64,000 nt of DNA from Minisyncoccota bacterium (GCA_041650615.1 JBAZKU010000001.1:23385-87384), one strand, 5' to 3'; counted from the first letter of the stretch, positions 261 to 57,111 are shown. Notes: generated from the sequence alone by a model not told the origin. Numbers and translations: made by a program.

Positions 261-349
261 ATGAATCCCGTTAGAAATAATATAAATATTGAAAACGAGG
301 TATGGAAGTCTAGTATTATTAATTAATATAAATTTCTAACGGGATGAAT
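261..349 (+). repeat. start-codon-abutting bipartite inverted repeat, copy 1 (ATGAAT-CCCGTTAGAAAT ..53 nt.. ATTTCTAACGGG-ATGAAT)
   Basis: 12-bp inverted arms; the distal arm ends at the ATG of the thioredoxin-fold gene; direct ATGAAT duplicated on both sides. Confidence 0.8.
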
Positions 350-718
350 CAAAAAAATATTTTCTTTTTAATAATCGGTCTTCTGGTTTTAGGAGCAATT
401 GCGACTGTAATAATTCAATTAGGGGAGAAATCGGCGGTCATTTCTACAAAATATGACGCCTTTGCTCAATGTCTTGCGTCAAAAAAATTAACGATGTATG
501 GAGCTGTTTGGTGTTCTCATTGTCAGGCAGAAAAGGCGCGTTTTGGGGATTCTTTTAAATATGTGCCTTATGTTGAATGTTCCGAAAATCCAGATTTATG
601 TGTCGCAAAAGGCATAGAAAGTATTCCTACCTGGGTAAACGAAAAAGGAGAAAAATATGTGGGGGAACAAGGCTTAGAAAAATTATCGGAAATAAGCGGT
701 TGTGAATTACCTAAATAG
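344..718 (+). CDS. membrane-anchored thioredoxin-fold protein (CxxC)
   Basis: N-terminal TM helix then a W-C-S-H-C redox motif (YGAVWCSHCQ), typical of thioredoxin/DsbA-like domains; start codon abuts the repeat arm ATTTCTAACGGG. Confidence 0.6.
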   Translation: MNQKNIFFLIIGLLVLGAIATVIIQLGEKSAVISTKYDAFAQCLASKKLTMYGAVWCSHCQAEKARFGDSFKYVPYVECSENPDLCVAKGIESIPTWVNEKGEKYVGEQGLEKLSEISGCELPK

Positions 719-720
719 AT

Positions 721-1266
721 CTAAAAAGATTTGAAAGATATATGTTCATGTGAACCGTACATTTTACGATAGAAATCCAAATCTGGATTTATGTTTTTTG
801 AATTAAATACAACTTGATCCATTCCTTCCCATAGTAAGAACCAAGCTGCCGGCTCTAAGAAAACAACCAAAAATGACAAGAGTAAATTTTCAGTAGGATC
901 TTTGAAGATAATAAACGTAGCAATTATCATACAAATAATTCCCACTAGTATCATAGATATGCCTAATTTTAATACTTTACGTTTTTCTTTCATTAATAAA
1001 TAATAGTGTCTCTTAAAGTGTGCTGATAATCTTTCTTGGATTACTGTCTCGTGAGATATCTCTCTCTTTTTTTCTTCTACATATAATGCGAGTTCAATTT
1101 TATCGTCCTTACTATCACTCGTTGCTCTTTTAATTTCATCAAGAAAGTCGACAGAAAGTGCCCTTTTTGAATATGGCCTAATATCAAAGTCTGAAAAGAT
1201 ATCATCATATTGTTCAAGTCTTATACTAATCTCTGAAATTTCTATTGAAGAAGCTTTATTTTCCAT
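721..1266 (-). CDS. hypothetical membrane protein (cytoplasmic N-domain plus 2 TM helices)
   Basis: ORF with two hydrophobic segments; no recognisable catalytic motif. Confidence 0.35.
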   Translation of the reverse strand: MENKASSIEISEISIRLEQYDDIFSDFDIRPYSKRALSVDFLDEIKRATSDSKDDKIELALYVEEKKREISHETVIQERLSAHFKRHYYLLMKEKRKVLKLGISMILVGIICMIIATFIIFKDPTENLLLSFLVVFLEPAAWFLLWEGMDQVVFNSKNINPDLDFYRKMYGSHEHISFKSF

Positions 1267-1387
1267 AAGGTTATATTACAATAATTATAAAAAAAATGAA
1301 AGTACTTGCATTAAAGTGTTTAATTGATTATATACTGCCTTTTAAGTATAATAATAAGTATTAAGATTTAAATTTGAGATAAATTAG

Positions 1388-1768
1388 ATGGATTCTAAAG
1401 AAGAAATAAAAGCTTGGCATGAAGTTAAAGTCAAAAATAGGTTTTTAAACGCATTCAGAGGTATGTATGTTTTTTATAAGACTTCAAAACATTTTTACAT
1501 ACTGATATTCAGCACAATAACGGTAGTATTTTTGGGATTTTATTTAAAAGTTTCAAGTTTAGAATGGATTGCCCTGATTTTCTCCATCGGCTTTGTGGTA
1601 GTCTCAGAAATATTCAATACGGCCATAGAAGTAGATATAGATCTGACATCTCCCGCATATCATCCATTTGCTCGTGATACGAAAGATCTGGCTGCAGCCG
1701 CTGTTGTTTTTTCCATATTTACTGCGGCCATTGTCGGGCTTATTGTTTTTCTGCCTAAAATTTTTTAA
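1388..1768 (+). CDS. dgkA: diacylglycerol kinase / undecaprenol kinase family (DgkA-like)
   Basis: About 125 aa, 3 TM helices, and EIFNTAIEVDIDL resembling the DgkA E-x-x-N-[ST]-A-[IL]-E signature. Confidence 0.55.
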   Translation: MDSKEEIKAWHEVKVKNRFLNAFRGMYVFYKTSKHFYILIFSTITVVFLGFYLKVSSLEWIALIFSIGFVVVSEIFNTAIEVDIDLTSPAYHPFARDTKDLAAAAVVFSIFTAAIVGLIVFLPKIF

Positions 1769-1771
1769 TGG

Positions 1772-2482
1772 ATGGATAAGGCAATTTTAAAAGAAATTAA
1801 TTTACACAAAGATCCTTTAAAAGCAAAATTGCTTGCTGGATATTTTAAGACAGGAAAAGGGCAATATGGTTTTGGTGACGTTTTCTTAGGACTTACTGTT
1901 CCACTTTCACGTTCTATTGCTTCAAAATACAAAAATATTTCACTTCAAGAAATCAATTTTCTAATAAAAAATAAAGCACACGAGGTTAGACTTATAGCCT
2001 TGTTTATTTTAATGTATAAATATAAAAATGGGCCACAAAATGAAAAGAAAAAAATTGTAAAATTTTACCTGAAGAATACAAAATTTATAAACAATTGGGA
2101 CTTAGTGGATTTATCAGCGCATAAGATACTCGGCGATTATCTTTGTAATTTTTCCCCATCACCTGGTGATGGGGAAACTCTGTTAAAATTGGCCCGTTCA
2201 AAGAATTTGTGGGAGCAAAGAATGGCCATAATTTCCACTTTTGCATTTATAAGTAAAGGGAACATGGAATGGAGCATAAAAATTGCCAAAATGTTTTTGG
2301 GTCATGATCATGATCTTATCCACAAGGCCTCGGGTTGGGTATTACGGGAAGTGGGGAAAAAAGATATGAAAACCTTGCGTAAATTTCTGGAAAAAAATAT
2401 TTCCTGCATGCCTCGCACTATGCTTCGTTATGCGATAGAAAAGTTTCCGGAAAAAATTCGTAAGGAATACCTTAAAAAATAA
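1772..2482 (+). CDS. DNA alkylation repair enzyme (AlkD/AlkC-like HEAT-repeat glycosylase family)
   Basis: N-terminal AKLLAGYFKTGKGQYGFGDVFLGLTVP matches the conserved start of DNA alkylation repair proteins; size about 235 aa. Confidence 0.55.
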   Translation: MDKAILKEINLHKDPLKAKLLAGYFKTGKGQYGFGDVFLGLTVPLSRSIASKYKNISLQEINFLIKNKAHEVRLIALFILMYKYKNGPQNEKKKIVKFYLKNTKFINNWDLVDLSAHKILGDYLCNFSPSPGDGETLLKLARSKNLWEQRMAIISTFAFISKGNMEWSIKIAKMFLGHDHDLIHKASGWVLREVGKKDMKTLRKFLEKNISCMPRTMLRYAIEKFPEKIRKEYLKK

Positions 2483-3091
2483 ATGTTAACTTTCACCCCA
2501 AAAGAAAAAGCCCTAATGCAAAAATTAAATACACCAGCTAAGGTGCAAGATTTTTTGAATGTACTCAGATTTAATTTTGAGGAAGAGGAAAAAACATTAA
2601 AATCTCCAGTTGTGATTCTAAGAACAAAAAGTGCGCATTGTATTGAAGGAGCTATTTTAGGTGCATATATACTTTCCTTACATGGTTTTCTGCCGCTTAT
2701 ATTGCATTTGCAGGCGACAAAAGAAGATTTTGACCATGTTATTTCTCCATTTAAAATTAACGGTCTCTGGGGTGCATTGTCCAAAACCAATCATGCGGTA
2801 TTACGATATCGTGAACCGATTTATAAAAATATCCGAGAATTGGCAATGTCTTATTTCCATGAATATTTTTTAGATAATGGTAGAAAAACCTTGCGAAGAT
2901 ATTCTAAACCCCTTAATTTAAATGTGTTTGAGAAAAGTTGGATATTGGAAGAGGGTGACTTATGGGGAATAGATGAAGAATTAGACAAAATAAAGCATTA
3001 CAATATCATCCCTAAATCTCACATTAAAAAACTCCGAAAAGCGGATAAAGTAGAAATAAAAGCCGGAAAAATTACAGAATATAAGAAATAG
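2483..3091 (+). CDS. hypothetical protein (possible Cys/His hydrolase-like)
   Basis: ORF immediately following the upstream gene; a conserved-looking Cys (SAHCIEGAILG); no firm family assignment. Confidence 0.3.
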   Translation: MLTFTPKEKALMQKLNTPAKVQDFLNVLRFNFEEEEKTLKSPVVILRTKSAHCIEGAILGAYILSLHGFLPLILHLQATKEDFDHVISPFKINGLWGALSKTNHAVLRYREPIYKNIRELAMSYFHEYFLDNGRKTLRRYSKPLNLNVFEKSWILEEGDLWGIDEELDKIKHYNIIPKSHIKKLRKADKVEIKAGKITEYKK

Positions 3092-3093
3092 GA

Positions 3094-4716
3094 TTAGAAA
3101 ATGCTAAAAATTTTCTCTAAAAATCTCACAAACCAGTTCCTTTTTGGAGTTTCGGTGTTTGTAGGGGGTTGGGAAAGATCAATAGCGTTTATGACTGCCG
3201 CAGCGTTTTGGTTTGCAAGGCTTTCTAGACTTGCTGTTTGTTTTATTTGTGTATCCTTTTTTGCTGTTTGTTTTGTTAACTTTTTTTCTATTTTAAGAGG
3301 GACTGGTTCCTCTTTTATTTTCTCAAATTTTTGCATTATTTGATTCCAAGTTTTTCCAGAAAGCGCCGTTACTGTATAAGCGGTTCCCCAAATTTTATTT
3401 TGTATAATGTCATCTCTTATTCCTCCATCAGGATCTTGATTGAAAGCCAAATAATCAAGGGGAGTATTTCCATTTCTTATCCAATCTTCTGGTTTTTCAT
3501 TCAACCCAAGTATGCCTTCCATCGCCCAAGCAGTAGAAGAAACATTATCCCAACCGCCATTGTCTTTTTGATTTTGTTTTAGAAACTCTTTAGCCTTTGC
3601 TAAGCTTTCTCCTATACCTGAGGTAGAAGAAAAAGCTGAAAGTGCTTCTATCCCGGCCCCAGTCATATCCACATTACTATCCCAAGAGCCGTCTTCTTTT
3701 TGTTTGCTTAAAATAAAAGCTATATCATCGGCTATCATTTTTTCGCTGGAAAGGAATCCGGCATTTTGTAAGACAATCAAAGCAAAAATATCGTCATTGT
3801 CTTCATTAATATCACCAAATTGCTTTCCATCAAAACTGTCAGTTATTTTTTTAATATAATTTTCACCGTTTGTATTATATGGATTGAGTCCTAGGGACAT
3901 CAAAGCCATCGCATGTCTTTCATAATCCGTCAAAAGCGTACCTGTATTTTTATTTTTAAATAAATACTCTATGAGCTTTATCTTTTGGTCTTGGTAATCT
4001 AAAGTTGTTGCCAGTGAAACAGCAATCCAGTCTGTATAAAGATTTTCATCGAAAGAACCATTTTCTTTTTGCTGTGAAATTATGAATTCAAAAGCCTTCT
4101 TTAAGTCAAAAATCGGTTTTATCGGATCCTTGACAATATATGATCCTCCCTTTTTACTACTTGCACTGCTTTCTTGCACTGGTGGAATTTCAGGTTCAGG
4201 TATCGGGTCAATCGGGTCAATGGGGTCTATAAAATTTAATAAAATTAAATCATTGGGTTGTAATTCATACTGATTTAAACCTGTAGTCCCATCAGTCCCA
4301 TTTAAAGACCAGCTCCAATAGTGATAGACGTCATTATTATCCTTATCTTTGGTCGTATAACCGGCTATATTATTTAAGGAATTTAAAAAAGCACCAGGAG
4401 CCCAACTCCAATTCCAATCGCTTGGAATTCCTGACTGTAAAATAGCGCAATAGGGTGTTGTTTTTAAATCCGAAGTGGCTGCATTATCATTATTACATGC
4501 ATTAACATTTATATCTTGATTAAATATTGAATCAGTTTTGTCAGTTATAGTTAAATGAATAGCAATCGGTTCTGGGGTAAGGGGAGTAATATCTTCGGTA
4601 ATTTCGGTAATTATCGGGGGATCTGTCACCCCAATTTCTTCTTCAGCGCGGACTATTCCAACGATTGAGGCTAATAAAATTAATACTATAAGCAGAATCT
4701 TTTTTATATTTTTCAT
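3094..4716 (-). CDS. secreted alpha/alpha-toroid repeat protein (prenyltransferase/squalene-cyclase-like Q-x-x-D-G-[GS]-[WF] repeats) with PIDPIDP linker
   Basis: Signal peptide MKNIKKILLIVLILLASIVGIVRA; four repeats QKENGSFD / QKEDGSWD / QKDNGGWD / QDPDGGIRD as in terpenoid-cyclase/prenyltransferase alpha6-alpha6 barrels; lies downstream of the DUF4430 gene in the same operon. Confidence 0.5.
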   Translation of the reverse strand: MKNIKKILLIVLILLASIVGIVRAEEEIGVTDPPIITEITEDITPLTPEPIAIHLTITDKTDSIFNQDINVNACNNDNAATSDLKTTPYCAILQSGIPSDWNWSWAPGAFLNSLNNIAGYTTKDKDNNDVYHYWSWSLNGTDGTTGLNQYELQPNDLILLNFIDPIDPIDPIPEPEIPPVQESSASSKKGGSYIVKDPIKPIFDLKKAFEFIISQQKENGSFDENLYTDWIAVSLATTLDYQDQKIKLIEYLFKNKNTGTLLTDYERHAMALMSLGLNPYNTNGENYIKKITDSFDGKQFGDINEDNDDIFALIVLQNAGFLSSEKMIADDIAFILSKQKEDGSWDSNVDMTGAGIEALSAFSSTSGIGESLAKAKEFLKQNQKDNGGWDNVSSTAWAMEGILGLNEKPEDWIRNGNTPLDYLAFNQDPDGGIRDDIIQNKIWGTAYTVTALSGKTWNQIMQKFEKIKEEPVPLKIEKKLTKQTAKKDTQIKQTASLESLANQNAAAVINAIDLSQPPTNTETPKRNWFVRFLEKIFSIF

Positions 4717-4734
4717 AATTGTTTAAGTTAATTT

Positions 4735-5181
4735 TTAATTCACGCTATCTTCATATTTCCAAATTACAATATCTCCCGGAATCATTTGATAATTTGAGAC
4801 TCCAATTGTTGCTTTTTTGTCATTTACATAATAAATCCAATTTTTGTCCCCGTTATTCTTTACTCCGTTTATCTCTTCAATAAATTTTCCCATCCCAGAA
4901 TAAACCTTGTCCTTAAAACTTATTTTCTTTTCCTTTTGCAGCTGTATCATGAAGTCATAGACATTTTCTTTCTCCGTTATTGATGTTTCCAACTTTTCCC
5001 CATTAATTTGGAGAAATGCTCGGTTTGTTTTTTCTATCTTAGTTGAAGAAAGAGAAGGAGGGGAAACAGAATTTGTACTCCAGCTAACATCTTTTGTAAA
5101 AACAAAAATTGAAAAGAAAAAAAGCGAGATAATAAAACCCAACCATATTATTTTTTTATTATTTTTCTTTATAGTTTCCAT
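4735..5181 (-). CDS. DUF4430 domain protein (transcobalamin/intrinsic-factor beta-domain-like), membrane-anchored
   Basis: N-terminal TM helix; C-terminal YSGMGKFIEEINGV...WIYYVND...GVSNYQMIPGDIVIWKY pattern typical of DUF4430; a cobalamin-riboswitch-like leader lies upstream. Confidence 0.5.
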   Translation of the reverse strand: METIKKNNKKIIWLGFIISLFFFSIFVFTKDVSWSTNSVSPPSLSSTKIEKTNRAFLQINGEKLETSITEKENVYDFMIQLQKEKKISFKDKVYSGMGKFIEEINGVKNNGDKNWIYYVNDKKATIGVSNYQMIPGDIVIWKYEDSVN

Positions 5182-5249
5182 CCCAGTACTAAAATTTTAT
5201 TAATAACTTTTATCTTTATGTCCCATAATCAAAAATTTAGTACGGGACA

Positions 5250-5440
5250 GGTAAAACGAAAAAAATTCTGCTCAAGCAGAATTTTGGGGCCTTCAAAAAG
5301 AAGAAGGGATATCCTGCTCGGGAAAATTAAAATGATTGATAATCGGACTTGTCTCTGACGATTATGTCAGAGCTTACCGTAGCGGCACTGTACTGGAATC
5401 TAACCAGTTTCCTCAATCATTTCTTACAATTTTTTAACGA
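5250..5440 (-). promoter_or_regulatory. candidate cobalamin (B12) riboswitch with intrinsic terminator, leader of the DUF4430/toroid operon
   Basis: The minus strand reads GGAAACTGGTTAGATTCCAGTACAGTGCCGCTACGGTAAG. This matches the cobalamin-riboswitch core GGGAA..GGTGaaAaTCC..CgGtCCCGCcACtGTaa. It is followed by the hairpin ATTCTGCTTGAGCAGAAT plus a T-run, then the start codon at 5181. Confidence 0.55.
5258..5284 (-). terminator. rho-independent terminator (expression platform of the riboswitch)
   Basis: 7-bp stem ATTCTGC/GCAGAAT followed by TTTTTTT on the minus strand. Confidence 0.5.
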
Positions 5441-5530
5441 ACCCCTTAATTTTATGCTTTCTTAATTATCTGTCAATTTTTACTGTGGATAAAGGAAATA
5501 TATTATTACAAAGAAAGGGTAAAAAATCAC

Positions 5531-5558
5531 TTGCCAAATAAAAAAATATGAATATAAT
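5531..5558 (+). promoter_or_regulatory. putative sigma70-type promoter for htrA (TTGCCA-N16-TATAAT)
   Basis: Hexamers seen by eye about 30 nt upstream of the ATG at 5589; AT-rich context makes this tentative. Confidence 0.3.
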
Positions 5559-5588
5559 TTTTTATTATTAGTAATTTTTTCAAGGCAT

Positions 5589-6902
5589 ATGCAAGAGTTA
5601 GATATCATAAAAATTATAAAAAAGACACTTTTAAATAAAAACTTTATTTATGTCTTTTTGATTAGTTTAGTTTCCTTAATTATTATTTTAGCTATTGTTT
5701 TTGGATTTGTTTGGCATTATCGTGCAAATGTTTTTGATTATTTTGCCAAAGAGTATTTACAAGAGGTACAAAATCCGAATAATGATTTAGGAAGTGACAG
5801 TAAATCAACCGCCGAAAAAATTATAGAAAAACAATCTATTTTTTCACAAGAATCTTTTGTGGTTAATGCCGTTAAAAAAACAAATCCAGCCGTTGTTTCT
5901 ATTATTATCAGCAAAAACGTTCCAAAATACGAAGCTTATATTGATCCGAACCAGCAACAAAATCCATTTGGTGATTTATTCCCCGATTTTTTCTTTAATA
6001 TTCCGCAATATCGCCAAAATGGCACGGAGAAAAAAGATATCGGTGGAGGTTCCGGATTTTTTGTATCAAGTGATGGGCTAATCGTTACCAATAAGCATGT
6101 TGTTGATCAAACAGGCGTTGAATATACGGTCTTTACAAATGACGGGAAAAAACATACGGCGAAGATAGTAGCCAAAGATCCGGTTTTAGATATCGCCCTT
6201 TTAAAAGTTGATGGTTCCAATTTCCCGTATTTAACACTAGGCAATTCCGATTCTCTACAGATTGGACAAAGTGTTATTGCTATAGGCAATGCCTTAGGAG
6301 AGTTTAGAAATACGGTTTCTGTTGGAGTAATTTCCGGCCTTGCTCGTTCCATAACAGCGGGGGACAGTCTTTCCGGTAGTATGGAAACCTTAGACCATGT
6401 CATTCAAACAGATGCAGCCATTAATCCTGGAAATTCAGGCGGGCCCTTGCTTGATTTGTCTGGAAATGTGGTTGGTGTCAATGTTGCCATAGCACAAGAT
6501 TCGCAAAATGTCGCTTTTGCTCTTCCAATAAATAGTGTTAAAAGTGCGGTTGAGTCCGTAAAAACCACCGGCAAAATAGTAAGACCATATTTGGGTATCA
6601 GATATGTTACTATAAACGCCGAAATGAAAGAAAAAAATAATTTATCAGTAGATTATGGCGTACTTGTCAAAGCGGGGCAAAATCAAAATGAACTGGCTGT
6701 TATCCCGGGTTCTCCAGCCGATAAAGCAGGAATAGTGGAAAATGACATAATTCTTGAAGTGAGTGGAGTGAAGTTAGATGATGAAACCTCTTTGGCTTCT
6801 CTTGTTAGAAAAAAAAATATTGGCGATATAATTACTTTAAAAATTCTCCATAAAGGGGCCGAAAAAACTGTTCAAGTAACCCTGGAAGCAGCCAAAGATT
6901 AA
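5589..6902 (+). CDS. htrA: HtrA/DegP-family serine protease with C-terminal PDZ domain
   Basis: N-terminal TM helix; catalytic-region motifs TNKHVV, DIALLK and GNSGGPL; PDZ-like GSPADKAGIVENDIILEVSG. Confidence 0.8.
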   Translation: MQELDIIKIIKKTLLNKNFIYVFLISLVSLIIILAIVFGFVWHYRANVFDYFAKEYLQEVQNPNNDLGSDSKSTAEKIIEKQSIFSQESFVVNAVKKTNPAVVSIIISKNVPKYEAYIDPNQQQNPFGDLFPDFFFNIPQYRQNGTEKKDIGGGSGFFVSSDGLIVTNKHVVDQTGVEYTVFTNDGKKHTAKIVAKDPVLDIALLKVDGSNFPYLTLGNSDSLQIGQSVIAIGNALGEFRNTVSVGVISGLARSITAGDSLSGSMETLDHVIQTDAAINPGNSGGPLLDLSGNVVGVNVAIAQDSQNVAFALPINSVKSAVESVKTTGKIVRPYLGIRYVTINAEMKEKNNLSVDYGVLVKAGQNQNELAVIPGSPADKAGIVENDIILEVSGVKLDDETSLASLVRKKNIGDIITLKILHKGAEKTVQVTLEAAKD

Positions 6903-6905
6903 ATC

Positions 6906-8066
6906 CTATCGTTGCTCCCTCACCACATCTTTAAGCCGTAGGGCAACAAAAAGTCCGGCAAATGATACTGTGCCTAATACAAAGAAGAGATATTCAAAAG
7001 ATGGAACAAGAAAAAGAACAAAAACAGCTGAAAGTGGAGCAATAATATAAGAAACAGAAGGAGCATTACGGAAAAAACTGATTTCGTCAGCATCCTTTTC
7101 ACTTACAATTTTAAAAAAGTAGCTTTCATTCATAGTTTCTATTGTAGCAGCACCCACGCGTGTGATAAAAAGCAATAAAGCCCATACCCAAAGTATGGAT
7201 TCTGAAATAAAAGGAATTGCTAAAACAGACGATGTCATAATTAAGAAGCCTGCAATAAGCATTTCTTTCTCCCCGATTTTGTCTGAGAATTTGCCTAAAG
7301 GAAAATTCAATATAACAAATGGAATGAGCATTATAGAAAAAATAATGCCTATTTTATCCCAACCGAAACCCATATATTCATGTAAATATATAGGCGTATA
7401 AATCACCATCCAAGAATAAAAAAAATGTAGAATGAAATTGCTCAAATATATCTTTGAAAGATGCCTATTTTTTATAAAAGATTTGATTGTTTTTAATATT
7501 GAACCCCTTTTATATTCCGGGTCTTTGAAATCACGCAAAAATAAAACAAAAATAGACATTACTAGAACCATGAATCCTGCACCTAAAAGATAAATTCCCA
7601 TAAAAGAACTTTTATTAATAATTGAACCGGAAATTAGTTGAGCAACAACCCAAGCAAAATTTATAACCATCAAAAAAAATCCTCGCAAGGCTCCCACAGA
7701 AGAATTTCTAGAAAAATCTTCAATAAAAATATCCAATGAAGCAATAATAAAGTAAATTGACAAGAAATAAAGAATAAAGGCGGGGATTATAATAAAAACG
7801 CTGTTTCCAAAGGCAAGTAAAATAAACGATAAGAACATTAACAAACAAGATAGGAGAATTGTTAAACGATTCCCCAGACGAGTCAGAATTTTAGGCATTC
7901 TTAATAAACCTCCAATAGTTACGATAGAAGCGGCTACGTAAATAATACCTACATAGTTTTTTCCAACGTAAGTTTCTAGAAAACTTGAATTTATATAAGA
8001 AACGAGGGCCATCGGTATGGAAAATAAAAAAGTAGCTAAATATATTATTTTTCTATTATGTTTCAT
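6906..8066 (-). CDS. MFS-type transporter (about 12 TM helices)
   Basis: Polytopic hydrophobic ORF. The start is taken as the ATG immediately after the ATCTCTAACGGG repeat arm (MKHNRK...); the six-frame track starts 18 nt upstream at 8084. Confidence 0.5.
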   Translation of the reverse strand: MKHNRKIIYLATFLFSIPMALVSYINSSFLETYVGKNYVGIIYVAASIVTIGGLLRMPKILTRLGNRLTILLSCLLMFLSFILLAFGNSVFIIIPAFILYFLSIYFIIASLDIFIEDFSRNSSVGALRGFFLMVINFAWVVAQLISGSIINKSSFMGIYLLGAGFMVLVMSIFVLFLRDFKDPEYKRGSILKTIKSFIKNRHLSKIYLSNFILHFFYSWMVIYTPIYLHEYMGFGWDKIGIIFSIMLIPFVILNFPLGKFSDKIGEKEMLIAGFLIMTSSVLAIPFISESILWVWALLLFITRVGAATIETMNESYFFKIVSEKDADEISFFRNAPSVSYIIAPLSAVFVLFLVPSFEYLFFVLGTVSFAGLFVALRLKDVVREQR

Positions 8067-8150
8067 CCCGTTAGAGATTTCCATGAATTATTATTAATAG
8101 TTAATTTTATTTTTTAAGTTTTTTCCGTTATCTCTAACGGGATTTCATCT
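8061..8150 (-). repeat. start-codon-abutting bipartite inverted repeat, copy 2 (minus orientation, serves the MFS gene)
   Basis: The minus strand reads ATGAAA-TCCCGTTAGAGAT, a 51-nt spacer, then ATCTCTAACGGG-ATGAAACAT. Confidence 0.8.
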
Positions 8151-8163
8151 CCATAATAATTTT

Positions 8164-10116
8164 TTATATGCTTAACACTACGGGGATAACCAAAGGCCTT
8201 TTGGCGGTTTTTTGATATAAGAATTTTGAAACTGTCTCACCTAAGTTGGCCTTAATATAATCCAGGTCTACAGGCATTCTCATTCTATCTTCCACTCCCT
8301 TTTTAATAATAATTCGTACTTGACGCAAGAGTTCTTGATTCTCTTTTAGATAGACGAATCCGCGTGATATCAAATCCGGAGATTTTTTTAACTTTCCGGT
8401 ATTTTGATCCACTAGCGCTATGATTACAAACATTCCATCTTGTGCAAGCATTTGTCGGTCTCTAATAACAACATCTTGTACATCGGAAATAGCAAGTCCG
8501 TCCACCATCATTAATCCGGACGGAGCTTTTTCTTTTCGCAAGGTTATTTTTTCTCCATCAGCGGAAATTTCAATGACCGAACCATTGTCCGGAACAACTA
8601 TATTTTTTTCAGACATACCGATTTCCATAGCAAGTTCTTTGTGAAGTTCCAAGTGATAATGATTGCCATGAATTGGAATAAAGAATTTCGGATGTGTTTT
8701 TTTATGAAGCCATCTTATGTCTTCTTTGTTGCCGTGACCGGTAGCATGAACAAAGTCTTCTCCTGCGGTACGGTAACTTATGATACGTACGCCCTGTCTT
8801 GATAAATTATCTTTTATTCGCTGAACTGCTCTTTCATTTCCGGGAACAATAGAAGCCGAAAGGATTATAGTGTCTCCTTTATTAAGCGAAAATTTGGTAT
8901 GTGATTTATTAGATGCCCGAGAAAGAGCTGCAAATTCTTCTCCTTGAGAACCGGTCATAAGTATCACAATTTTATTGGGTGGATAACTATTAACTTCTTC
9001 TATAGGGATAATGGTGCCTTTTTTGGGTTTGAAATATCCGGCTTCTATCGCTACTTCTATATTTGTTTTCATGGAACGTCCATCTATAGCGATTTTTTTA
9101 CCGAGAGATTCGGCAACCTTAACAACATGCACCAAGCGAGTTATGTGGGAAGCGAAAGCGGCAATAATTATACGTCCGTTTATTTTTTTTATTAAATTTT
9201 CAAGTCCCTGATGTACTTTTATTTCGGGCAGAGAAAATCCTTCATTTTCAATATTTGTGGAATCGGTCATTAGAAGAAGTATTTTTGCTTTATCAAAAAT
9301 GGAATATTCCTTTTCTTCCTCTGGGGTGACAACCCCGTCTATTTGGTCTAACTTATAGTCTCCCGGGGTAACAATCCAGCCATTTTTTGTTTCAACAATA
9401 ATACCCATTGAATCAGGAATAGTATGTGTGACGCCAAAAAATCGGACTTTTATCTTTCCACACACCACTGTTCCATCTTTTTCAACTATTTCCGTTTTCA
9501 TTGGTGGTAAATGTGGGAACTCTGCTTGGCGTTTTTTCATTAGAAGCACAGAAAGATTTCTGGAATATACTGTTGGGTTGCCGATACGCGAAAGAACAAT
9601 AGGCACCCCTCCAATATGGTCCAAATGTCCATGGGTTATAAAAAGCCCCCGTATCTTATCTTTATGTTCTTCAAGGTAAGTTGTGTTTGGAATAACATAA
9701 TCTACACCAGGCGTTTCTTCGTTAGAAAAATGCATACCCGCATCAATAACTATAATATCATTGCCAATTTCTATAGCGGTCATATTTTTTCCGATCTCTT
9801 CTACTCCACCAAGTGTAATAATACGAACTACTCCTTCAGAAAGGGGAGGGATTTTATTTTCATTTATATTTTCATATTTGCTTTTGTTGCCTAATGGACG
9901 ATTATGATTTCTCCCTTGCCCGTAATTTTTTTTAGAATATTGATAGGTGGAATTTTTTGTGGCCCTTTTTTTATTTTCCACAGATGTCGAATGTCCGGAA
10001 ACCGAACGTCCAACATCTGTTTTAGTAGGCTTTTTTTCTCCACTTACAACACTATGCAAAGCACTGCGAGTAGGTTCAATACTTATAGCACTGAAAGACA
10101 ATCTAGTTTTTTTCAT
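8164..10116 (-). CDS. rnj: ribonuclease J (metallo-beta-lactamase / beta-CASP RNase)
   Basis: ITHGHLDHIGG metallo-beta-lactamase motif, beta-CASP region and RNase J length; basic low-complexity N-terminal extension, so the true start may be internal. Confidence 0.75.
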   Translation of the reverse strand: MKKTRLSFSAISIEPTRSALHSVVSGEKKPTKTDVGRSVSGHSTSVENKKRATKNSTYQYSKKNYGQGRNHNRPLGNKSKYENINENKIPPLSEGVVRIITLGGVEEIGKNMTAIEIGNDIIVIDAGMHFSNEETPGVDYVIPNTTYLEEHKDKIRGLFITHGHLDHIGGVPIVLSRIGNPTVYSRNLSVLLMKKRQAEFPHLPPMKTEIVEKDGTVVCGKIKVRFFGVTHTIPDSMGIIVETKNGWIVTPGDYKLDQIDGVVTPEEEKEYSIFDKAKILLLMTDSTNIENEGFSLPEIKVHQGLENLIKKINGRIIIAAFASHITRLVHVVKVAESLGKKIAIDGRSMKTNIEVAIEAGYFKPKKGTIIPIEEVNSYPPNKIVILMTGSQGEEFAALSRASNKSHTKFSLNKGDTIILSASIVPGNERAVQRIKDNLSRQGVRIISYRTAGEDFVHATGHGNKEDIRWLHKKTHPKFFIPIHGNHYHLELHKELAMEIGMSEKNIVVPDNGSVIEISADGEKITLRKEKAPSGLMMVDGLAISDVQDVVIRDRQMLAQDGMFVIIALVDQNTGKLKKSPDLISRGFVYLKENQELLRQVRIIIKKGVEDRMRMPVDLDYIKANLGETVSKFLYQKTAKRPLVIPVVLSI

Positions 10117-10148
10117 TTTTTTTGTGTTTAATAATAAAAATAGTTTTT

Positions 10149-10187
10149 ACCCACACACTTATTTTTTTAAAAAATAAGTGTGTGGGT
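10149..10187 (-). terminator. perfect palindrome ACCCACACACTTATTTTTTT/AAAAAATAAGTGTGTGGGT, a terminator-like member of the CCCCCACACTTATTTT palindrome family
   Basis: 19-bp perfect inverted repeat immediately 3' of the solute-binding-protein gene. Confidence 0.5.
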
Positions 10188-11939
10188 TTATTTGGAAAAT
10201 ATTTTCCAAACATTATCTGTTTTAGTATACCATAAATATGAGTTTAGAAATCTATTTTCTGGTGCGACAATATAATTTATAGAAAAACCTTCCAAATTTT
10301 TTGGCACGACGTATATGAAATCAGGGCTATATAAAAAAACTACCGGCATGTCTTTTTTAATCTCACTTTCAAATTGAGCATACTTGGCAATTCTCGATTT
10401 TTCGTCAATCGTAATAAACGCACTTTCTAATATTTTATCCACTTTGGCATTAGTATACATTGCCACATTAAGACCTGGATCTTTTATTTGCGAGGAATGC
10501 CAAAAAGCAAATAGATCAGATTCATTATTTATAATCTCTCCAAAAAGCAAAGCATCATATTTGCGTGGACGAATAACACTTTGGTTTAAATTGCCAATCT
10601 CAAAAGTTTTAATATCAACTTTCATGCCAATTTCTTCCAGATCCTGTTTTATTAATTCTGCCGATTTTACAAGTTCAGGAGCATTTCCAGTCGAAATAGA
10701 AAATTCCAAATAGGTTATAGTCTTTTTCTTTTTTTTGTCGGTGATTGTTTTCTGTAAAAATCCGTCTGTTCCTTTCACCCAGCCATCTTTGCTCAAGATA
10801 TCTTGTGCTTTTTTAACTTTGTTTTCATGTGAAGTGTCATCTGCTTTTTCTAAATTTTGGTAATCAATCATGTTAGGAGGGATCGGGCTGTCAATCACAA
10901 TTCCATATCCGGAGAACACATTACGAATAATACTGCTTTTATTTATAGCAAGATCCATAGCTTTGATTATATTTTTATCAGTAAAAATTTGATTTTGACT
11001 TTGGTTAAAAAAGAGTCCGAACACTCGAGGAAGCGCCAAAGATTCTACTCGATAATTCCCCTCTTTTAATATTTGCGCATTTATAGGAGAGATAGAACTT
11101 ATTTTATCCACTTCTCCAATTCCTAGCGCTTTTATTAGATTTTCTTCACTTGAATAAAAGCGTAACGTCAATTTACTTAAATAGGGTTCGCCTAAAGCAA
11201 ATTCTGCAAAGGGTACTAAATCATAATAATCTATTGATCCGTCGGATTGTTTGCTTACTTTTTCGATCTTAAAAGGTCCTGATCCGATTGGTTGTGTGTT
11301 TACATTGTTTAACTCAATGGGTGTGGTATTCCACAAATATGCCGGCATTATGCCAAGTGTTGTGTTTTCTAAAAAAGACGCATAAGGCTGTTTTAATATA
11401 AACTTAACTGTTTTTTCATCTATTTTTTCCACACTTACGCTACTCCAATTTCCCCTTTTAGGACTTTTTATGACTGGATCCTTTATTTCATTTATAGTGA
11501 AGATTATATCATCAACAGTGATGGGGTTTTTATCATGAAAATATATATTGTCTTTTAAGGTAAAAGTATATATCAAACCATCTTTTGAAACATCGTATTT
11601 AAGAGCCAAGTCCGGGATAAGTGTGCCATCAGAATTTTTTCTCATTAGCCCGGAATAAATAAGCGATACTAAATCTTGGTCGGCATCAGAAAAGGCCAAT
11701 ACTGGATTTATAAAACGAGGAATACCGATAACTCCTTCCGTTATAGTCCCTCCTTTCATAGGCACGTTGACCATAAAAGATTTATTAATATCCTGAAGTA
11801 TTGTCAATGTGCTTATGCAAAGAATAGCTACAAAACATAAAAAAACAAAATACTCTCTTTTTGAGAAATTAGAGATAGCCTTCCTTATTTCGTTTTTTGA
11901 CGGCAATAAACTACGTATGCGACTGTAAAATTTTTCCAT
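10188..11939 (-). CDS. ABC transporter substrate-binding protein, family 5 (peptide/nickel type), membrane-anchored
   Basis: Size and the conserved YTFTLKDNIYFHD...ITVDD segment typical of SBP family 5; N-terminal TM anchor. Confidence 0.6.
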   Translation of the reverse strand: MEKFYSRIRSLLPSKNEIRKAISNFSKREYFVFLCFVAILCISTLTILQDINKSFMVNVPMKGGTITEGVIGIPRFINPVLAFSDADQDLVSLIYSGLMRKNSDGTLIPDLALKYDVSKDGLIYTFTLKDNIYFHDKNPITVDDIIFTINEIKDPVIKSPKRGNWSSVSVEKIDEKTVKFILKQPYASFLENTTLGIMPAYLWNTTPIELNNVNTQPIGSGPFKIEKVSKQSDGSIDYYDLVPFAEFALGEPYLSKLTLRFYSSEENLIKALGIGEVDKISSISPINAQILKEGNYRVESLALPRVFGLFFNQSQNQIFTDKNIIKAMDLAINKSSIIRNVFSGYGIVIDSPIPPNMIDYQNLEKADDTSHENKVKKAQDILSKDGWVKGTDGFLQKTITDKKKKKTITYLEFSISTGNAPELVKSAELIKQDLEEIGMKVDIKTFEIGNLNQSVIRPRKYDALLFGEIINNESDLFAFWHSSQIKDPGLNVAMYTNAKVDKILESAFITIDEKSRIAKYAQFESEIKKDMPVVFLYSPDFIYVVPKNLEGFSINYIVAPENRFLNSYLWYTKTDNVWKIFSK

Positions 11940-11972
11940 AAAACTAAAATTTAATGCAAAATGTAGATTTTA

Positions 11973-12215: not shown

Positions 12216-12272
12216 ACAACTAGTATCTCATATTTTAACCCAAAATGCAATCCTTGAATTCTCAATTGCGTT

Positions 12273-13451: not shown

Positions 13452-13582
13452 ATGTATCCCGTTAGAGATTAATTAGTTTAATGGGAAAATTTAAATTAAA
13501 ATATTAAAAAAGTTTATTTAGTCAATAAATTATAAAAATAAGTACGAGAATCTAAAGATTCTCTATCTCTAACGGGATGTAT
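13452..13582 (+). repeat. start-codon-abutting bipartite inverted repeat, copy 3 (ATGTAT-CCCGTTAGAGAT ..95 nt.. ATCTCTAACGGG-ATGTAT)
   Basis: Distal arm ends at the ATG of the DUF167 gene; direct ATGTAT duplication. Confidence 0.8.
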
Positions 13583-16594: not shown

Positions 16595-17650
16595 ATGTCG
16601 GAGAATAATACTAAAATCAAACTAGGAATACTTCGAGGCGGAGCAGGAAAACACTATGAATCTTCTTTGCGAAAAGGCGGAGATCTTATTTCGCATATTT
16701 TCAAAAATTTGTCTGATAAGTATAAAACAGTTGATATTTTGATTGACAAAAAAGGCGAATGGCATATTAATGGCGTACCCATAAATCCTGCGGATTTGGT
16801 ACGTAAAGTTGATATCGTTTGGAATACTACACATCCGAATGTTTCTTCTATCCTGCAAAATTTTTCTATTCCTCATATTAGCAATAGTATTTTTTCGTCC
16901 ACATTGGAAAATAGCCGAGAAATGTTAGAAGAACATATAAAAAGCATCGGAGTTCAGATGCCCAGATCCATAATCCTGCCTTTATATCAAAAAGATTTTG
17001 ATGGGACTAGAGAAAGATACGCTATTAAAAAAGCAAAAGAAATTTTTGAAAAATTTGGCTCGCCCTGGATTGTGAAATCTTTTACAAATAATTCCGATAT
17101 GGGTCCCATTAGAGGCCGCGAGGGCTCGCAGCGACCCTCTGCCTCTAACGGGATGGGCATACATCTGGCAAAAACTTTTGGAGAATTAGCGGGAGCGATA
17201 GAAGATGGAGTAATTCATGAAAAAAGTATTTTGATTGAAGAATTTATTTCAGGCAAAGTTGCTTCGGTGCATTCTGTCGTTGGTTTTCGCGGAGACCTGC
17301 CTGCGCAGGCAGGACAAATTTATACTTTTCCTCTGGGCAAACCTTTTGGCAACCCGCCTAGACTCCCGCCTAGACTTGGCGAGGCTGGCGGCGAGGCTGG
17401 TTTTTCTTCCAGTGAAAAAGAAAAATTGATTTCTCTGGCAAAAGATTTGCATAATCATATTGGAGCAAAACATTATTTAAAATCTGATTTTGTTTTAAAT
17501 TCCCGAGGCAAAATTTTTCTTTTAAATATAGAGTCTATTCCTGACTTAAAATCGGACTCGCATTTTTCCCAAGTCTGTGAATCTGTTGGCGCTAAGGCAC
17601 ATCACGTAGTTGAACATATTTTAGAAAGAGCGTTAAATAAGAGTATATAA
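16595..17650 (+). CDS. ddl: D-alanine--D-alanine ligase-like ATP-grasp enzyme with in-frame GC-rich insertions
   Basis: N-terminal IKLGILRGGAGKHYESSLRKG Ddl-like start and ATP-grasp length; about 45 extra residues include PPRLPPRLGEAGGEAG encoded by two tandem 24-nt repeat units. Confidence 0.6.
   Translation: MSENNTKIKLGILRGGAGKHYESSLRKGGDLISHIFKNLSDKYKTVDILIDKKGEWHINGVPINPADLVRKVDIVWNTTHPNVSSILQNFSIPHISNSIFSSTLENSREMLEEHIKSIGVQMPRSIILPLYQKDFDGTRERYAIKKAKEIFEKFGSPWIVKSFTNNSDMGPIRGREGSQRPSASNGMGIHLAKTFGELAGAIEDGVIHEKSILIEEFISGKVASVHSVVGFRGDLPAQAGQIYTFPLGKPFGNPPRLPPRLGEAGGEAGFSSSEKEKLISLAKDLHNHIGAKHYLKSDFVLNSRGKIFLLNIESIPDLKSDSHFSQVCESVGAKAHHVVEHILERALNKSI
17143..17155 (+). repeat. solo distal-arm-like motif CTCTAACGGGATG embedded in-frame inside ddl
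   Basis: 13-nt identity to the family's distal arm, next to a GC-rich hairpin GAGGGCTCGCAGCGACCCTC. Confidence 0.5.
17353..17400 (+). repeat. 2 tandem copies of the 24-nt GC-rich in-frame element (CCCGCCTAGACT)2(YGGCGAGGCTGG)2 inside ddl
   Basis: Same unit as in secA (20386-20409) and typA (50056-50079). Confidence 0.8.
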
Positions 17651-33722: not shown

Positions 33723-34259
33723 ATGTTCACCGACCCGGTAAAAAACTTAAAAGCCTTTGATTTAAGGGAAAATATGATTGTGGCGGATTTGGGCGCTGGT
33801 TCCGGCTTTTATACTATTCCTGCGGCAGGAATAGTTTCCAGGGGAAAAGTTTATGCCATTGAAATACAAAAAGATTTTTTAACAACAATCAAAAATAAGG
33901 CGGCAGAGGCTCATCTTAATAATCTGGAATGCTTCGTAGGGGATATTGAAAAAATAGGCGGGACAAAATTAAAAGACAATATAGTAGATGCCGTAATTGC
34001 TTCCAATATACTTTTTCAAGTGGAAGACAAAGATAAATTTATAGAAGAAGCAAAAAGAATATTGAAACCCAATGGCAAACTCCTTCTTATTGATTGGTCT
34101 GATAATTCGTCCGGTATCGGAGCCAGTTTTGATAAAATTATTCCTAAAAATAAGGCGCGGGAAATGTTTGAAAAGGAAGGTTTCATATGGCAGCGGGATA
34201 TTTCCGCTGGAGACCATCATTATGGTATGATTCTAGTAAAGGGAAATGAATCCCGTTAG
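33723..34259 (+). CDS. class I SAM-dependent methyltransferase
   Basis: Motif I VADLGAGSGFYT and motif post-I/II spacing; about 178 aa. Confidence 0.7.
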   Translation: MFTDPVKNLKAFDLRENMIVADLGAGSGFYTIPAAGIVSRGKVYAIEIQKDFLTTIKNKAAEAHLNNLECFVGDIEKIGGTKLKDNIVDAVIASNILFQVEDKDKFIEEAKRILKPNGKLLLIDWSDNSSGIGASFDKIIPKNKAREMFEKEGFIWQRDISAGDHHYGMILVKGNESR

Positions 34260-34379
34260 AGATTGCATGGTTAATAAATCAGATAATATATAAAAAATGA
34301 CTTTATGTCGAAAATTTTAATAAAAAGTAATATAACTACGGGAATGCAAAGCATTTCCTATCTCTAACGAGATGAAAGG
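34247..34379 (+). repeat. start-codon-abutting bipartite inverted repeat, copy 5 (ATGAAT-CCCGTTAGAGATT ..94 nt.. ATCTCTAACGAG-ATGAAA)
   Basis: The proximal arm overlaps the TAG stop of the methyltransferase gene; the distal arm ends at the ATG of the SBP gene. Confidence 0.75.
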
Positions 34380-36165: not shown

Positions 36166-36169
36166 AAAC

Positions 36170-37450: not shown

Positions 37451-37525
37451 GATCCCGTTAAAAATTCACAAACGGGATTGTTGTTGGGTGTTTATTAGTT
37501 AATTTCAATTTCTAACGGGATGAAT
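37451..37525 (+). repeat. start-codon-abutting bipartite inverted repeat, copy 6, with an extra internal AACGGGAT arm
   Basis: GATCCCGTTAAAAATT..AAACGGGATTG..ATTTCTAACGGG-ATG of pilin-like paralog 5; the three complementary segments allow alternative pairings. Confidence 0.7.
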
Positions 37526-44162: not shown

Positions 44163-44165
44163 GGC

Positions 44166-49358: not shown

Positions 49359-49410
49359 TTTTTTGTTATTTTAAGAAAAGTATGCTATTATTTTATTTAG
49401 AAAATTAATA

Positions 49411-49517
49411 AACGAAGTGAATATAATTTTCTTAACCCTGTTAAATAATTTTTGCTTCGCAAAAATTGCCTAAAGGCATTTAACAGGGTGATGATTTTTA
49501 TAATCACTTCGTTTTTT
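49411..49517. repeat. about 107-nt nested imperfect palindrome immediately upstream of typA
   Basis: AAACGAAGTGA..TCACTTCGTTT outer arms, ACCCTGTTAAAT..ATTTAACAGGGT inner arms, central TTTTGCTTCGCAAAAA palindrome. Confidence 0.5.
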
Positions 49518-49528
49518 AAAAATCAATC

Positions 49529-55115: not shown

Positions 55116-55639
55116 GAAACCACAATTTAGCTTTTATAGATATAGAAACCACCGGACTGGATGTGATAAAGCATGAAATTATTGAAATTGGCTGTGTAAT
55201 AACGACACCGAAGCTTAAAATTATTGAAAAATTTGAATTAAAAATAAAACCGGAACGAATAGAAGATGCTGACCCCATATCTCTCAAGATTATTCATTAT
55301 GATCCTCTTAATTGGAAAGATGCTCAAATCCTAGAAGAAGCTATGAAAATTTTTTCTAAAAAAGTCAAAGACTGTATTATGGTTGGGCACAATGTATCTT
55401 TTGATTCGGGATTTTTAGAACATGCTTTTTCAAAAACTGAATCTAAAAATCTTATGCATTATCATAAACTGGACACAGTTTCTATCACTTGGGCTAAATT
55501 GCACAGAAAAGCAAGTATCAGGCATTTTTCTTTACGGGAATTATGCAAACTTTTTGATATAAAAAATGAACATCCCCATAGCGCCTTGTCGGACGCCTAT
55601 GCCACCTTTGAGCTTTACAAAAAGCTTATGAAGGTGTAA
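55112..55639 (+). CDS. DEDDh 3'-5' exonuclease (DnaQ-like)
   Basis: Exo I FIDIETTGLD, Exo II VGHNVSFD, Exo III HSALSDAYAT. Confidence 0.75.
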   Translation: MRNHNLAFIDIETTGLDVIKHEIIEIGCVITTPKLKIIEKFELKIKPERIEDADPISLKIIHYDPLNWKDAQILEEAMKIFSKKVKDCIMVGHNVSFDSGFLEHAFSKTESKNLMHYHKLDTVSITWAKLHRKASIRHFSLRELCKLFDIKNEHPHSALSDAYATFELYKKLMKV

Positions 55640-55711
55640 AATAAGTGGGTTCATAAGTTAGAGTTATGAACCGTTAAAGGGTGTGAGGCAAGTCGACTTT
55701 TTTAGTACGGC

Positions 55712-57016
55712 TTGCCTTTTTTATTTACAAACGCAAATAATATAGCTATTATGGCAATAATGCCAAAAGAGTTAAAAAATAAAAAAATAGTATTTGTCGG
55801 TTTATCAGGCGGTGTTGATAGCGCTGTTTCGGCAGCGTTGCTTAAAAAACAGGGATATGAAGTTGTTGGGGTTTTTATACGCACTTGGCATCCGGGATTT
55901 CTGGAATGTAACGAAGAAGAAGAACGTCTTGATGCGATGCGGGTAGCGGCGCATTTAGATATTCCATTTTTAACTTTTGATTTGGAAAAAATATATAAAA
56001 AAGAAGTTGCCGATTATATGATAAAAGAATACAGAGCCGGTAGAACGCCTAATCCGGATGTAATGTGTAACAAAGAAGTCAAATTTGGCGCATTTCTAAA
56101 AAAAGCAATTTCCATGGGAGCAGATTTTGTAGCGACGGGACATTATGCGAGCATTTCTGCAGAAGAATGTTTTTATGAGATTCCGGAGGCGCGTAGCTTG
56201 GGGCAGTCAAGGGTTTATCCCTTGACGGCGCAGCGCCGAGGACAAAGCAAGAATGCCGCCGGAGCATTCTTGCGTGCTCAGAAAAATATTTTTCTGCAGA
56301 AGGGGATTGATCCAACAAAAGACCAAAGTTATTTTCTTTGGACTTTAAAACAAGAACAACTAAAGAAAATTTTATTTTCCATCGGCCACTTGAAAAAAAC
56401 CGAAGTTCGCAAACTGGCAAAGAAATTTAATTTGCCGGTGGCAGAAAAAAAAGACAGCCAAGGCATTTGCTTTTTGGGCGCGGTGGATTTAAAAGAATTT
56501 TTAAAACACTACATTAAAGAAAAAAAGGGGAAAGTTTTAAATGAGAAAGGGGAGGAAATAGGATATCACGATGGAGTGTTTTTTCATACCTTAGGGGAAC
56601 GTCATGGTTTTACTATTACTAAAAAAAGCCCGAGTGACGGTCCATACTATATAGTAGGTAAAAATGTAAAGAAGAATATACTTTATGTATCACAGAATAT
56701 AAAGCAGATGCTTTTTCACGGCTCGCACTCGAACCTGAATGTGGTTCACGAACCTAATATTGCGTATGCCGAAAAAAGCACTGCTTTATATTCTGTAAAG
56801 ATTAAAAACACAAATTGGATTTCCGAAATTCCTAAACTAGGGAAACAATATACTACTCAAATTCGTTATCATAGTGAATTTTTGCCGTGTAAAATTAAAA
56901 TCATCAATAAGACAAAAGCTGAAATACTATTTAAGAAGCCCGTTTTAGTCGCTTCCGAGCAATCTTGCGTTATATATGATGGAAATATTTGTCTAGGAGG
57001 AGGAATTGTTATATGA
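55712..57016 (+). CDS. mnmA: tRNA-specific 2-thiouridylase MnmA with about 30-aa GC-rich in-frame insert
   Basis: PP-loop VFVGLSGGVDSAV, CNKEVKFGAFL, GHYA...KDQSYFLW; the insert is at about 56170-56300; the N-terminal start is uncertain. Confidence 0.75.
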   Translation: MPFLFTNANNIAIMAIMPKELKNKKIVFVGLSGGVDSAVSAALLKKQGYEVVGVFIRTWHPGFLECNEEEERLDAMRVAAHLDIPFLTFDLEKIYKKEVADYMIKEYRAGRTPNPDVMCNKEVKFGAFLKKAISMGADFVATGHYASISAEECFYEIPEARSLGQSRVYPLTAQRRGQSKNAAGAFLRAQKNIFLQKGIDPTKDQSYFLWTLKQEQLKKILFSIGHLKKTEVRKLAKKFNLPVAEKKDSQGICFLGAVDLKEFLKHYIKEKKGKVLNEKGEEIGYHDGVFFHTLGERHGFTITKKSPSDGPYYIVGKNVKKNILYVSQNIKQMLFHGSHSNLNVVHEPNIAYAEKSTALYSVKIKNTNWISEIPKLGKQYTTQIRYHSEFLPCKIKIINKTKAEILFKKPVLVASEQSCVIYDGNICLGGGIVI

Positions 57017-57023
57017 TATATAC

Positions 57024-57111
57024 ATGGATCCCGTTAGAAATAGGAAATCTTTAGATTTCCGTCTAGCTAACCAGATTCATAATTATTAGCTTAATTTCTA
57101 ACGGGATGGAA
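57024..57111 (+). repeat. start-codon-abutting bipartite inverted repeat, copy 7 (ATGGAT-CCCGTTAGAAAT ..53 nt.. ATTTCTAACGGG-ATGGAA)
   Basis: Distal arm ends at the ATG of the MgtC-family gene; direct ATGGA duplication. Confidence 0.8.

Follow-up and report, generated by a model that had tools for sequence, protein, structure and literature searches.

How does a short inverted repeat come to end exactly at the first base of a start codon, and to do so at gene after gene? The question is raised by a 64,000-nucleotide stretch from a Minisyncoccota bacterium (GCA_041650615.1 JBAZKU010000001.1:23385-87384; this whole stretch is called the window below), in which paired arms of common sequence enclose short AT-rich spacers and the gene-side arm of each pair runs up to the ATG of the downstream gene. 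A preliminary description of this DNA had listed six complete units and one isolated arm, and had favoured an invertible promoter or an RNA structure that sequesters the start codon. From a comparison of arms, flanks and orthologous sites we hold it highly probable that the units are copies of a non-autonomous, cut-and-paste DNA transposon superfamily resembling MITEs (miniature inverted-repeat transposable elements): they have terminal inverted repeats and a fixed 4-bp duplication, are small and non-coding, occur in seven copies in 64 kb, and are present or absent at orthologous sites.

Arms, duplication and target

Searching the window for CCCGTTAGARAT with at most one mismatch gave 12 matches against 0.55 expected, a number reached in none of 100 shuffles; the 12 matches make up six inverted pairs, and the six complete copies of the preliminary description are thereby borne out at their places. 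In all six the base that follows the gene-side arm is the A of a real gene's ATG, as had been described, and the gene identities proposed earlier agree with the Pfam assignments (Thioredoxin, MFS_1, DUF167, SBP_bac_1, T4SS_pilin, and MgtC); for DUF167, the alignment to the profile begins at protein residue 2.

For the wider comparison, paired arms were scanned for in one genome per species, and the flanks in the resulting stretches, at least 119 in number, were then compared. The general unit reads N-[TGNN]-Y-CCCGTTAGARAT...ATYTCTAACGGG-R-[TGNN], with terminal inverted repeats of 13 nt around a non-coding interior that measures about 25-140 nt; in all, elements are 50-140 nt long. In the 124 elements among the matches listed, the extra base pair outside CCC/GGG is T/A in 61, C/G in 59, and non-complementary in four; a 4-bp direct repeat adjoins this terminal pair and is perfect in 76, against 10.5 expected with shuffled left and right partners. 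Elements with a C/G terminal pair read ATGAAC on the left side and GTGAA on the right, which rules out a duplication of 5 or 6 bp and identifies the right-hand start codon as the element's last base followed by the duplicated TG. The copied gene starts had been taken for target-site duplications of 5-6 nt; their nature was rightly recognized, but the length is 4 bp (TGNN), and copy 5 lacks a duplication altogether. The arms of gene-side elements are perfect over 13/13 positions in 81 of 94, a proportion that is partly due to ascertainment, exact arms having been used in the search.

The interiors have some structure of their own. Near the far arm lies an internal motif, TA(A/G)CGGGAT, which repeats part of the gene-side arm; relative to the gene it is oriented the same way in 29 elements and the opposite way in four. 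Long forms carry a hairpin of the type AGG-stem-loop-stem-CCGT directly against one arm, which may be either arm; the letters of the stem vary and its pairing is kept (window 13546-13563, 34341-34359, and 57043-57060; loci L079, L044, and L034). Together with the TATTTCT of the adjoining arm, this hairpin resembles an outward-facing terminator.

The target was read from 85 reconstructed pre-insertion sites. It has the form R^T-R-A-R (caret, point of insertion), mostly A^TGAA or A^TGGA, with A in 70 and G in 13 sites at position -1, and, over the duplicated positions, T in 83, G/A in 68/17, A/G in 64/16, and A/G in 72/13; positions beyond these five bases carried no information. Patescibacterial elements usually sit at ATGAA or ATGGA; those of Desulfobacterota, Planctomycetota, and Omnitrophota are often found at GTAAA, either at a stop codon or lying upstream of a Shine-Dalgarno site. 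The association with start codons described from the window recurs in the wider search, where an open reading frame of at least 60 codons opens at the base after the arm in 65 of 123 exact-arm elements among the matches listed; in an unselected sample of relatives, too, start codons hold most of the elements.

A null model for this association was taken from the window itself (91% coding), which contains 30 start codons of the form ATGRA and 13 intergenic ATGRA sites, so that about 70% of the tolerated sites are start codons. Most of the start-codon geometry is thus explained by three factors acting together: a five-base target, a duplication by which the gene is restored, and selection against intragenic insertion. 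From the sequence itself it follows that the target is cut after the first base of the ATG and that TGNN is duplicated; the left copy thereby retains the old start codon and, where genes overlap at ATGA, also the TGA stop of the upstream gene, and the terminal base of the element, which is always a purine, forms a new ATG or GTG with the right-hand TG, in the original frame. An insertion at a start codon, or in frame in a tolerant loop such as that of Ddl, would be nearly harmless, and insertions into the same pentamer inside genes would be lost; because the start codon is rebuilt on insertion, the element would be tolerated in very compact genomes. The prevalence of envelope proteins among the downstream genes probably follows from the target as well, ATGAA encoding Met-Lys or Met-Asn, a typical N-terminus of signal peptides.

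Table 1. Copies of the element and a promoter-like sequence in the window. Positions are counted from the first letter of the window; arms and duplications are given as left / right.
Feature	Position	Strand	Form and length	Arms	Duplication	Further features
Copy 1	266..344	+	79 nt	267-278 / 332-343	TGAA, 262-265 / 345-348	Terminal T 266, terminal A 344 (A of ATG); interior 279-331; downstream gene thioredoxin-like
Copy 2	8066..8142	-	77 nt	8067-8078 / 8130-8141	5 bp, TTTCA (gene strand TGAAA), 8061-8065 / 8143-8147	MFS start codon 8066-8064
Copy 3	13457..13577	+	Long form, 121 nt	13458-13469 / 13565-13576	TGTA, 13453-13456 / 13578-13581	Inner hairpin GAGAATCTAAAGATTCTC adjoins gene-side arm; downstream DUF167
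Copy 4	34251..34372	+	Long form, 122 nt	34252-34263 / 34360-34371, one mismatch	TGAA, 34247-34250 / 34373-34376	Inner hairpin GGGAATGCAAAGCATTTCC adjoins gene-side arm; downstream solute-binding protein
Copy 5	37453..37520	+	Short form, 68 nt	37454-37465 (one mismatch) / 37508-37519	None (CGGA vs TGAA)	Third segment AAACGGGAT at 37470-37478; downstream T4SS-pilin-like
Copy 6	57029..57106	+	Short form, 78 nt	57030-57041 / 57094-57105	TGGA, 57025-57028 / 57107-57110	Inner hairpin GGAAATCTTTAGATTTCC adjoins distal arm; downstream mgtC
Copy 7	17104..17153	+	Short GC-rich form, 50 nt	CCCATTAGAGGC 17105-17116 / GCCTCTAACGGG 17141-17152	TGGG, 17100-17103 / 17154-17157	Inside ddl
Promoter-like TTGTCT-17 nt-TATGAT	56989..57029	+				6 nt before left duplicated ATGGAT (57024-57029)

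Mobility and the identity of the element

The arm described earlier as standing alone in ddl proved to belong to a complete seventh copy, ATGGGT-CCCATTAGAGGC-24 nt-GCCTCTAACGGG-ATGGGC. Its repeat period of 54 nt equals 18 codons and keeps the frame, and an alignment of Ddl orthologues places the encoded, inserted peptide GPIRGREGSQRPSASNGM at an internal Met, that of the conserved MGIHLAK motif. These 18 codons are found in the window, P0003, and P0005, but not in 11 orthologues, among them the closest one, which is 84% identical over ungapped columns. At the DNA level the window and locus L203 share 96% identity over the insertion, 74% over the genes, and 67% over the left flank; together with the patchy presence, this difference points to entry of the same short subfamily into the same internal ATG in separate lineages, or to its repeated clean loss from that site. 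The ddl copy indicates that the element recognizes its target sequence and not the start codon as such. Two further GC-rich, partly palindromic mini-insertions lie in frame in ddl (17290-17320 and 17345-17400), encoding DLPAQAG and PPRLPPRLGEAGGEAG; they too are patchy among Ddl orthologues.

Comparison of orthologous loci, which the preliminary description had proposed as a check, was made for the solute-binding protein gene downstream of copy 4. Orthologues were obtained from 80 metagenomic loci, and the start-codon region could be read in 74; the majority of these sites are empty and nine are filled. At empty sites the stop codon of the upstream methyltransferase gene abuts or overlaps the ATGAAAGG start; locus L172, one of the empty ones, reads AAAGCA-ATGAAGG. 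Locus L171 is filled and reads AAAGCA-ATGAA-T[CCCG...CGGG]A-TGAA-GGC; the difference between the two is exactly the 4-bp duplication plus a unit with 13-nt ends. In L171 the left copy preserves the TGA stop of the upstream gene (an ATGA overlap) and the right copy preserves the start codon. In the window, the methyltransferase reading frame upstream of copy 4 now terminates at a TAG within the left arm (34257-34259). At least four subtypes occupy the same start codon in different lineages: a short form; a long form, in locus L191, orthologous to copy 4 of the window; compensated arm variants, CCCGTACGAAAT and CCCGAACGAAAT; and a composite form.

Whole units also recur at unrelated places. Within 5 kb of locus L159, three start codons each bear a 138-nt copy, the three copies being 100% identical; in another Nomurabacteria genome (L084), a copy with unrelated flanks matches copy 6 at 96% identity; and tandem and nested copies have a single 4-bp repeat in common. 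Old orthologous copies decay by indels in the arms, and in L134 the start codon itself was lost. These comparisons show that the copies are mobile and that some have moved recently.

These findings bear directly on the invertible-promoter (inverton) reading of the preliminary description, in which the arms would be recombinase sites and the interior a promoter flipping in front of surface genes. Inverted repeats do enclose an AT-rich segment directly upstream of genes, and promoter-like hexamers occur in the interiors, some facing the gene and others facing away; this mixed facing within copies was correctly described, but over positions 1-14000, the largest region scanned, promoter matches are at the level of shuffled sequence (63 vs 56.9). 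The interiors measure only 42-101 bp, which to our knowledge is shorter than any described invertible segment. The 4-bp duplications and the empty orthologous sites speak against inversion, as do the polarity of the internal motif, the in-frame and translated ddl copy, and the lack of a recombinase among the window's 25 most frequent Pfam families. Orientation is, moreover, constant in every related pair or group (copy 4 and L191; copy 6 and L084; copy 5, L124, and L134; L165, L166, and L171; L180, L182, and L189; the three copies of L159). We regard the inverton as extremely improbable and have given up this part of the preliminary description.

It is also very improbable that the arms are attC-like recombination sites, or paired operators of a conserved DNA-binding protein, with ordinary intergenic DNA between them. 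In attC sites, R'' (RYYYAAC) at the 5' end and R' (GTTRRRY) at the 3' end form imperfect inverted repeats of 57-141 bp around a variable middle, in a cassette array beside intI. The present arms contain GTTAGA and TCTAAC, the same hexamers as the R'/R'' core, the total length of 66-125 bp is attC-like, and the two arms change together. The likeness thus extends to the imperfect inverted repeats, the variable middle, and the hexamers; the order GTTAGA...TCTAAC, however, is the reverse of that in attC, target-site duplications are present here, and the copies are scattered among housekeeping genes and not collected in cassette arrays, with no integrase seen among the 25 Pfam families most frequent in the window. 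Neither attC sites nor operators would account for units that are present or absent as a whole, interior included, between duplications, or for identical whole units at different genes; the arm spacing also lacks helical phasing.

The transposon reading has to be placed among known systems. Known MITEs include the Correia elements of Neisseria and MITEAba12, and the plant Stowaway and Tourist superfamilies consist of many families that share only their terminal repeats. The present family is likewise short, non-coding, and multi-copy, with terminal repeats, a fixed duplication, polymorphic sites, and subfamilies with common ends; unlike these MITEs, it rebuilds the start codon (at ATGA also the stop codon) and has the same 13-nt ends across distant phyla. 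The preliminary description had argued that spacers unrelated in sequence were unlike a MITE: they are indeed unrelated within the window, but in other genomes subfamilies with conserved interiors occur, so that the argument falls. Rickettsia palindromic elements are mobile palindromes that can sit in frame within genes and be translated; the ddl copy is comparable, although intragenic copies are the exception here, where insertion at a gene's first codons is the rule, and the sequences are unrelated. Internal eliminated sequences of Paramecium and the 'byp' elements of Magnusiomyces mitochondria are excised from the DNA and skipped by the ribosome, respectively; they too are short, with conserved ends, duplicated flanks, unrelated interiors, and a restored gene reading, but in the present family it is the duplication that restores the gene, as the element inserts. 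Repetitive extragenic palindromic sequences (REPs) are genus-specific in sequence, lack a target duplication, and carry a conserved GTAG/CGTC tag; REP/REPIN elements mobilized by a RAYT transposase were considered and rejected, a 4-bp duplication being present here, the GTAG/CGTC tag absent, and the ends the same across phyla.

A literature search by arm sequence and by topic (MITEs in the candidate phyla radiation or at start codons) returned no description of the element, only unrelated primer matches. A 4-bp staggered cut would suggest a DDE-type transposase acting in trans. For piggyBac, a 4-bp TTAA duplication with the variants TAAA, TCAA, and TATG has been described, with repeats that begin with CCC and with IS1380 as outgroup (PMC10813416). 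The present family is similar in its 4-bp duplication of the form T-N-A-A/R (occasionally 5 bp here), in the CCC near the tip, and in an apparently clean loss, which is compatible with seamless excision; it differs in the variable Y/R pair between duplication and CCC and in the target, TGAA/TAAA and not TTAA. By analogy, piggyBac and its prokaryotic relative IS1380, which duplicates 4-5 bp, offer the closest mechanistic resemblance, to be taken as a lead and not as membership.

Several points weigh against the transposon reading, or against its sufficiency. About 40% of the elements are without a perfect duplication. A subset without duplication carries a conserved left flank, (G)GACYTGT, with a -10-like box about 6 nt upstream, in unrelated lineages (L119 229-240, L023 10-21, L021 675-686, L025 3674-3685 on the minus strand, L124 8385-8396, L134 9195-9206). 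Both arms have changed in concert at two positions and in the TACG variants, which fits co-evolution with a transposase and a requirement for a hairpin equally well, and the 29 to 4 polarity of the internal motif needs either oriented insertion or selection for function. With a target of ATG only, start codons would make up about 34% of the tolerated sites, and target preference together with selection may not account for the whole enrichment. As to a transposase, the 25 most frequent Pfam families of the 65 window open reading frames are all housekeeping families; neither a further copy nor a transposase turned up in 20 kb of extra flank; and the search of about 1.9 Mb of loci for an autonomous copy gave, at arm distances of up to 3.5 kb, only cross-pairings of separate small elements, among them the 1.6-kb pair of L143, formed by two elements that have 1-nt indels in their arms and lie on either side of pilin genes. 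Only three viral stretches contain an arm pair, and BLAST of two subfamilies against plasmids gave no match.

A possible role as 5' leader

In addition to being a transposon, and not in place of it, the element may have been exapted as a modular 5' leader, a proposal that we make tentatively and consider rather unlikely. It starts from the host. A Shine-Dalgarno-like motif precedes only 4 of 57 window genes, and -10-like hexamers are sharply concentrated 6 nt upstream of start codons (at 5-8 nt in 13 of 60 window genes), which suggests that many host transcripts are leaderless (-10-like boxes close to start codons are seen, for example, at 36154-36172, 33707-33725, and 44150-44168). In the transposon reading itself, without any exaptation, the old promoter of such a gene probably now starts transcription at the left ATG, and the 5' leader thus formed by the element begins with a short reading frame. 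Under exaptation, ribosomes would load at the left AUG as on a leaderless mRNA, read through the left arm, and melt the 13-14-bp stem that hides the start codon; they would then re-initiate after terminating either at an overlapping AUGA or at the right-arm TAA, which lies 4 nt before the start, the TA(A/G)CGGGAT segment serving as an alternative partner for the left arm. In the frame of the left ATG the arm always encodes Pro-Val-Arg-Asn/Asp, and open frames end at the right-arm TAA, end at an overlapping ATGA, or fuse in frame with the gene. In the window, TTGTCT-17-TATGAT is likely, judged by its consensus match and by the peak at distance 6, the original leaderless promoter of mgtC, now feeding into copy 6.

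Apart from the partly leaderless, Shine-Dalgarno-free host, the proposal draws on the position of -10-like boxes: 13 of 66 elements have one exactly 6 nt upstream of their left start codon (background about 1), and 19 of 66 have one at 5-8 nt, often with an extended TG. The short frame ends at most 4 nt from the real start in 17 of the 66 and spans at least 75% of the leader in 27, the expectation from shuffled interiors being 12.5; the third segment's polarity also agrees with a leader. Folding of the leader, suggested earlier as a check, predicts that the stem forms: including the A and U of the start codon, it has z-scores of -3.5 to -7.4 in five of six copies. Against this, the left-AUG frame crosses the interior without a stop codon in 20 of 66 elements, a weak excess over the other five frames (5-16), most orthologous genes work without the element, and old orthologous copies decay, with arm indels and the lost start codon of L134. 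The G.U pairs that a selected RNA stem should favour on the sense strand are not in excess, the arm mismatches being 4 G.U, 6 A.C, and 4 other. For the start-codon-sequestering RNA of the preliminary description this means that the predicted stem stands, but that support from a sense-strand G.U bias or from Rfam is missing; at the gathering threshold Rfam gave no match at any copy in the window and five loci, and over 34150-37600 none at E<=1.

Translational coupling through the short frame is put forward as a hypothesis from these reading frames. A bolder version, which we think unlikely, would see in the family a seamless prokaryotic lineage of piggyBac/IS1380-like kind, with true homing to start codons and ATGA junctions and a spread over Patescibacteria, Planctomycetota, Desulfobacterota, and Omnitrophota; in leaderless, Shine-Dalgarno-free hosts it would have been adopted as a portable leader, where translating the short 5'-terminal frame would open a hairpin over the real start codon and so couple or gate about one gene in ten.

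Distribution, neighbouring features and significance

Genome stretches with exact arm pairs include a carrier contig of 1.24 Mb (CAWHBU010000003.1). Taxon labels among the matches listed comprise 75 Patescibacteria, 14 Planctomycetota, 8 'Deltaproteobacteria', 6 Omnitrophota, and others. Interior subfamilies found across genomes are a 'delta' form, TCCAGCGGGGCATTAAACCCCG..., a CGCGGACGCG... form with nested repeats, and the AGG-stem-loop-stem-CCGT forms. A minimal derivative with arms 3 nt apart (CCCGTTAGAAAT-CCA-ATTTCTAACGGG) lies on the viral contig L121 (3955-3995). A cluster of five small T4SS-pilin-like genes, at about 35.6-37.9 kb of the window, has start codons that repeatedly bear elements in relatives (also L143 5752-6961).

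The window, which belongs to a Patescibacteria genome of Paceibacteria/Nomurabacteria-like type with 35% G+C, is a housekeeping region by Pfam (gyrA, secA, alaS, mur ligases, ribosomal proteins). It contains a lone 16S rRNA gene (14756-16304), followed by ddl and not by a 23S gene, and a cobalamin riboswitch on the minus strand (5289-5463). Two further repeat families were noticed. The first is a mobile-looking inverted-repeat family with arms of about 42 nt (window 49405-49519; L123, L124, L134, L160, L168, and L170), the core of which, ACCCTGTTAAAT / ATTTAACAGGGT, is similar to the arms of the present element; L123, L124, and L134 have it at the intergenic site upstream of the same solute-binding-protein gene. 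The second is a repeated hairpin, GCCCCCACACTTATTTT / AAAATAAGTGTGGGGGC (10149-10187, 28895-28957, 36932-36970, and 17890-18030), the copies of which, lying between genes, could be taken for bidirectional terminators or for a REP-like repeat.

Taken as they are read here, the units are an active, widespread miniature transposon superfamily that rebuilds start and stop codons, with a possible regulatory role as leader. A selfish element at high density, one per 9 kb in the window, would thus persist in bacterial genomes that are among the smallest and most gene-dense, its target, 4-bp duplication, and terminal purine together restoring the start codon downstream and, where genes overlap, the stop codon upstream. 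The annotation of gene starts is affected, the left ATG being a decoy; leaderless genes become genes with a structured leader; and peptides can be added to essential enzymes such as Ddl. The family also marks a putative transposase common to very distant phyla.

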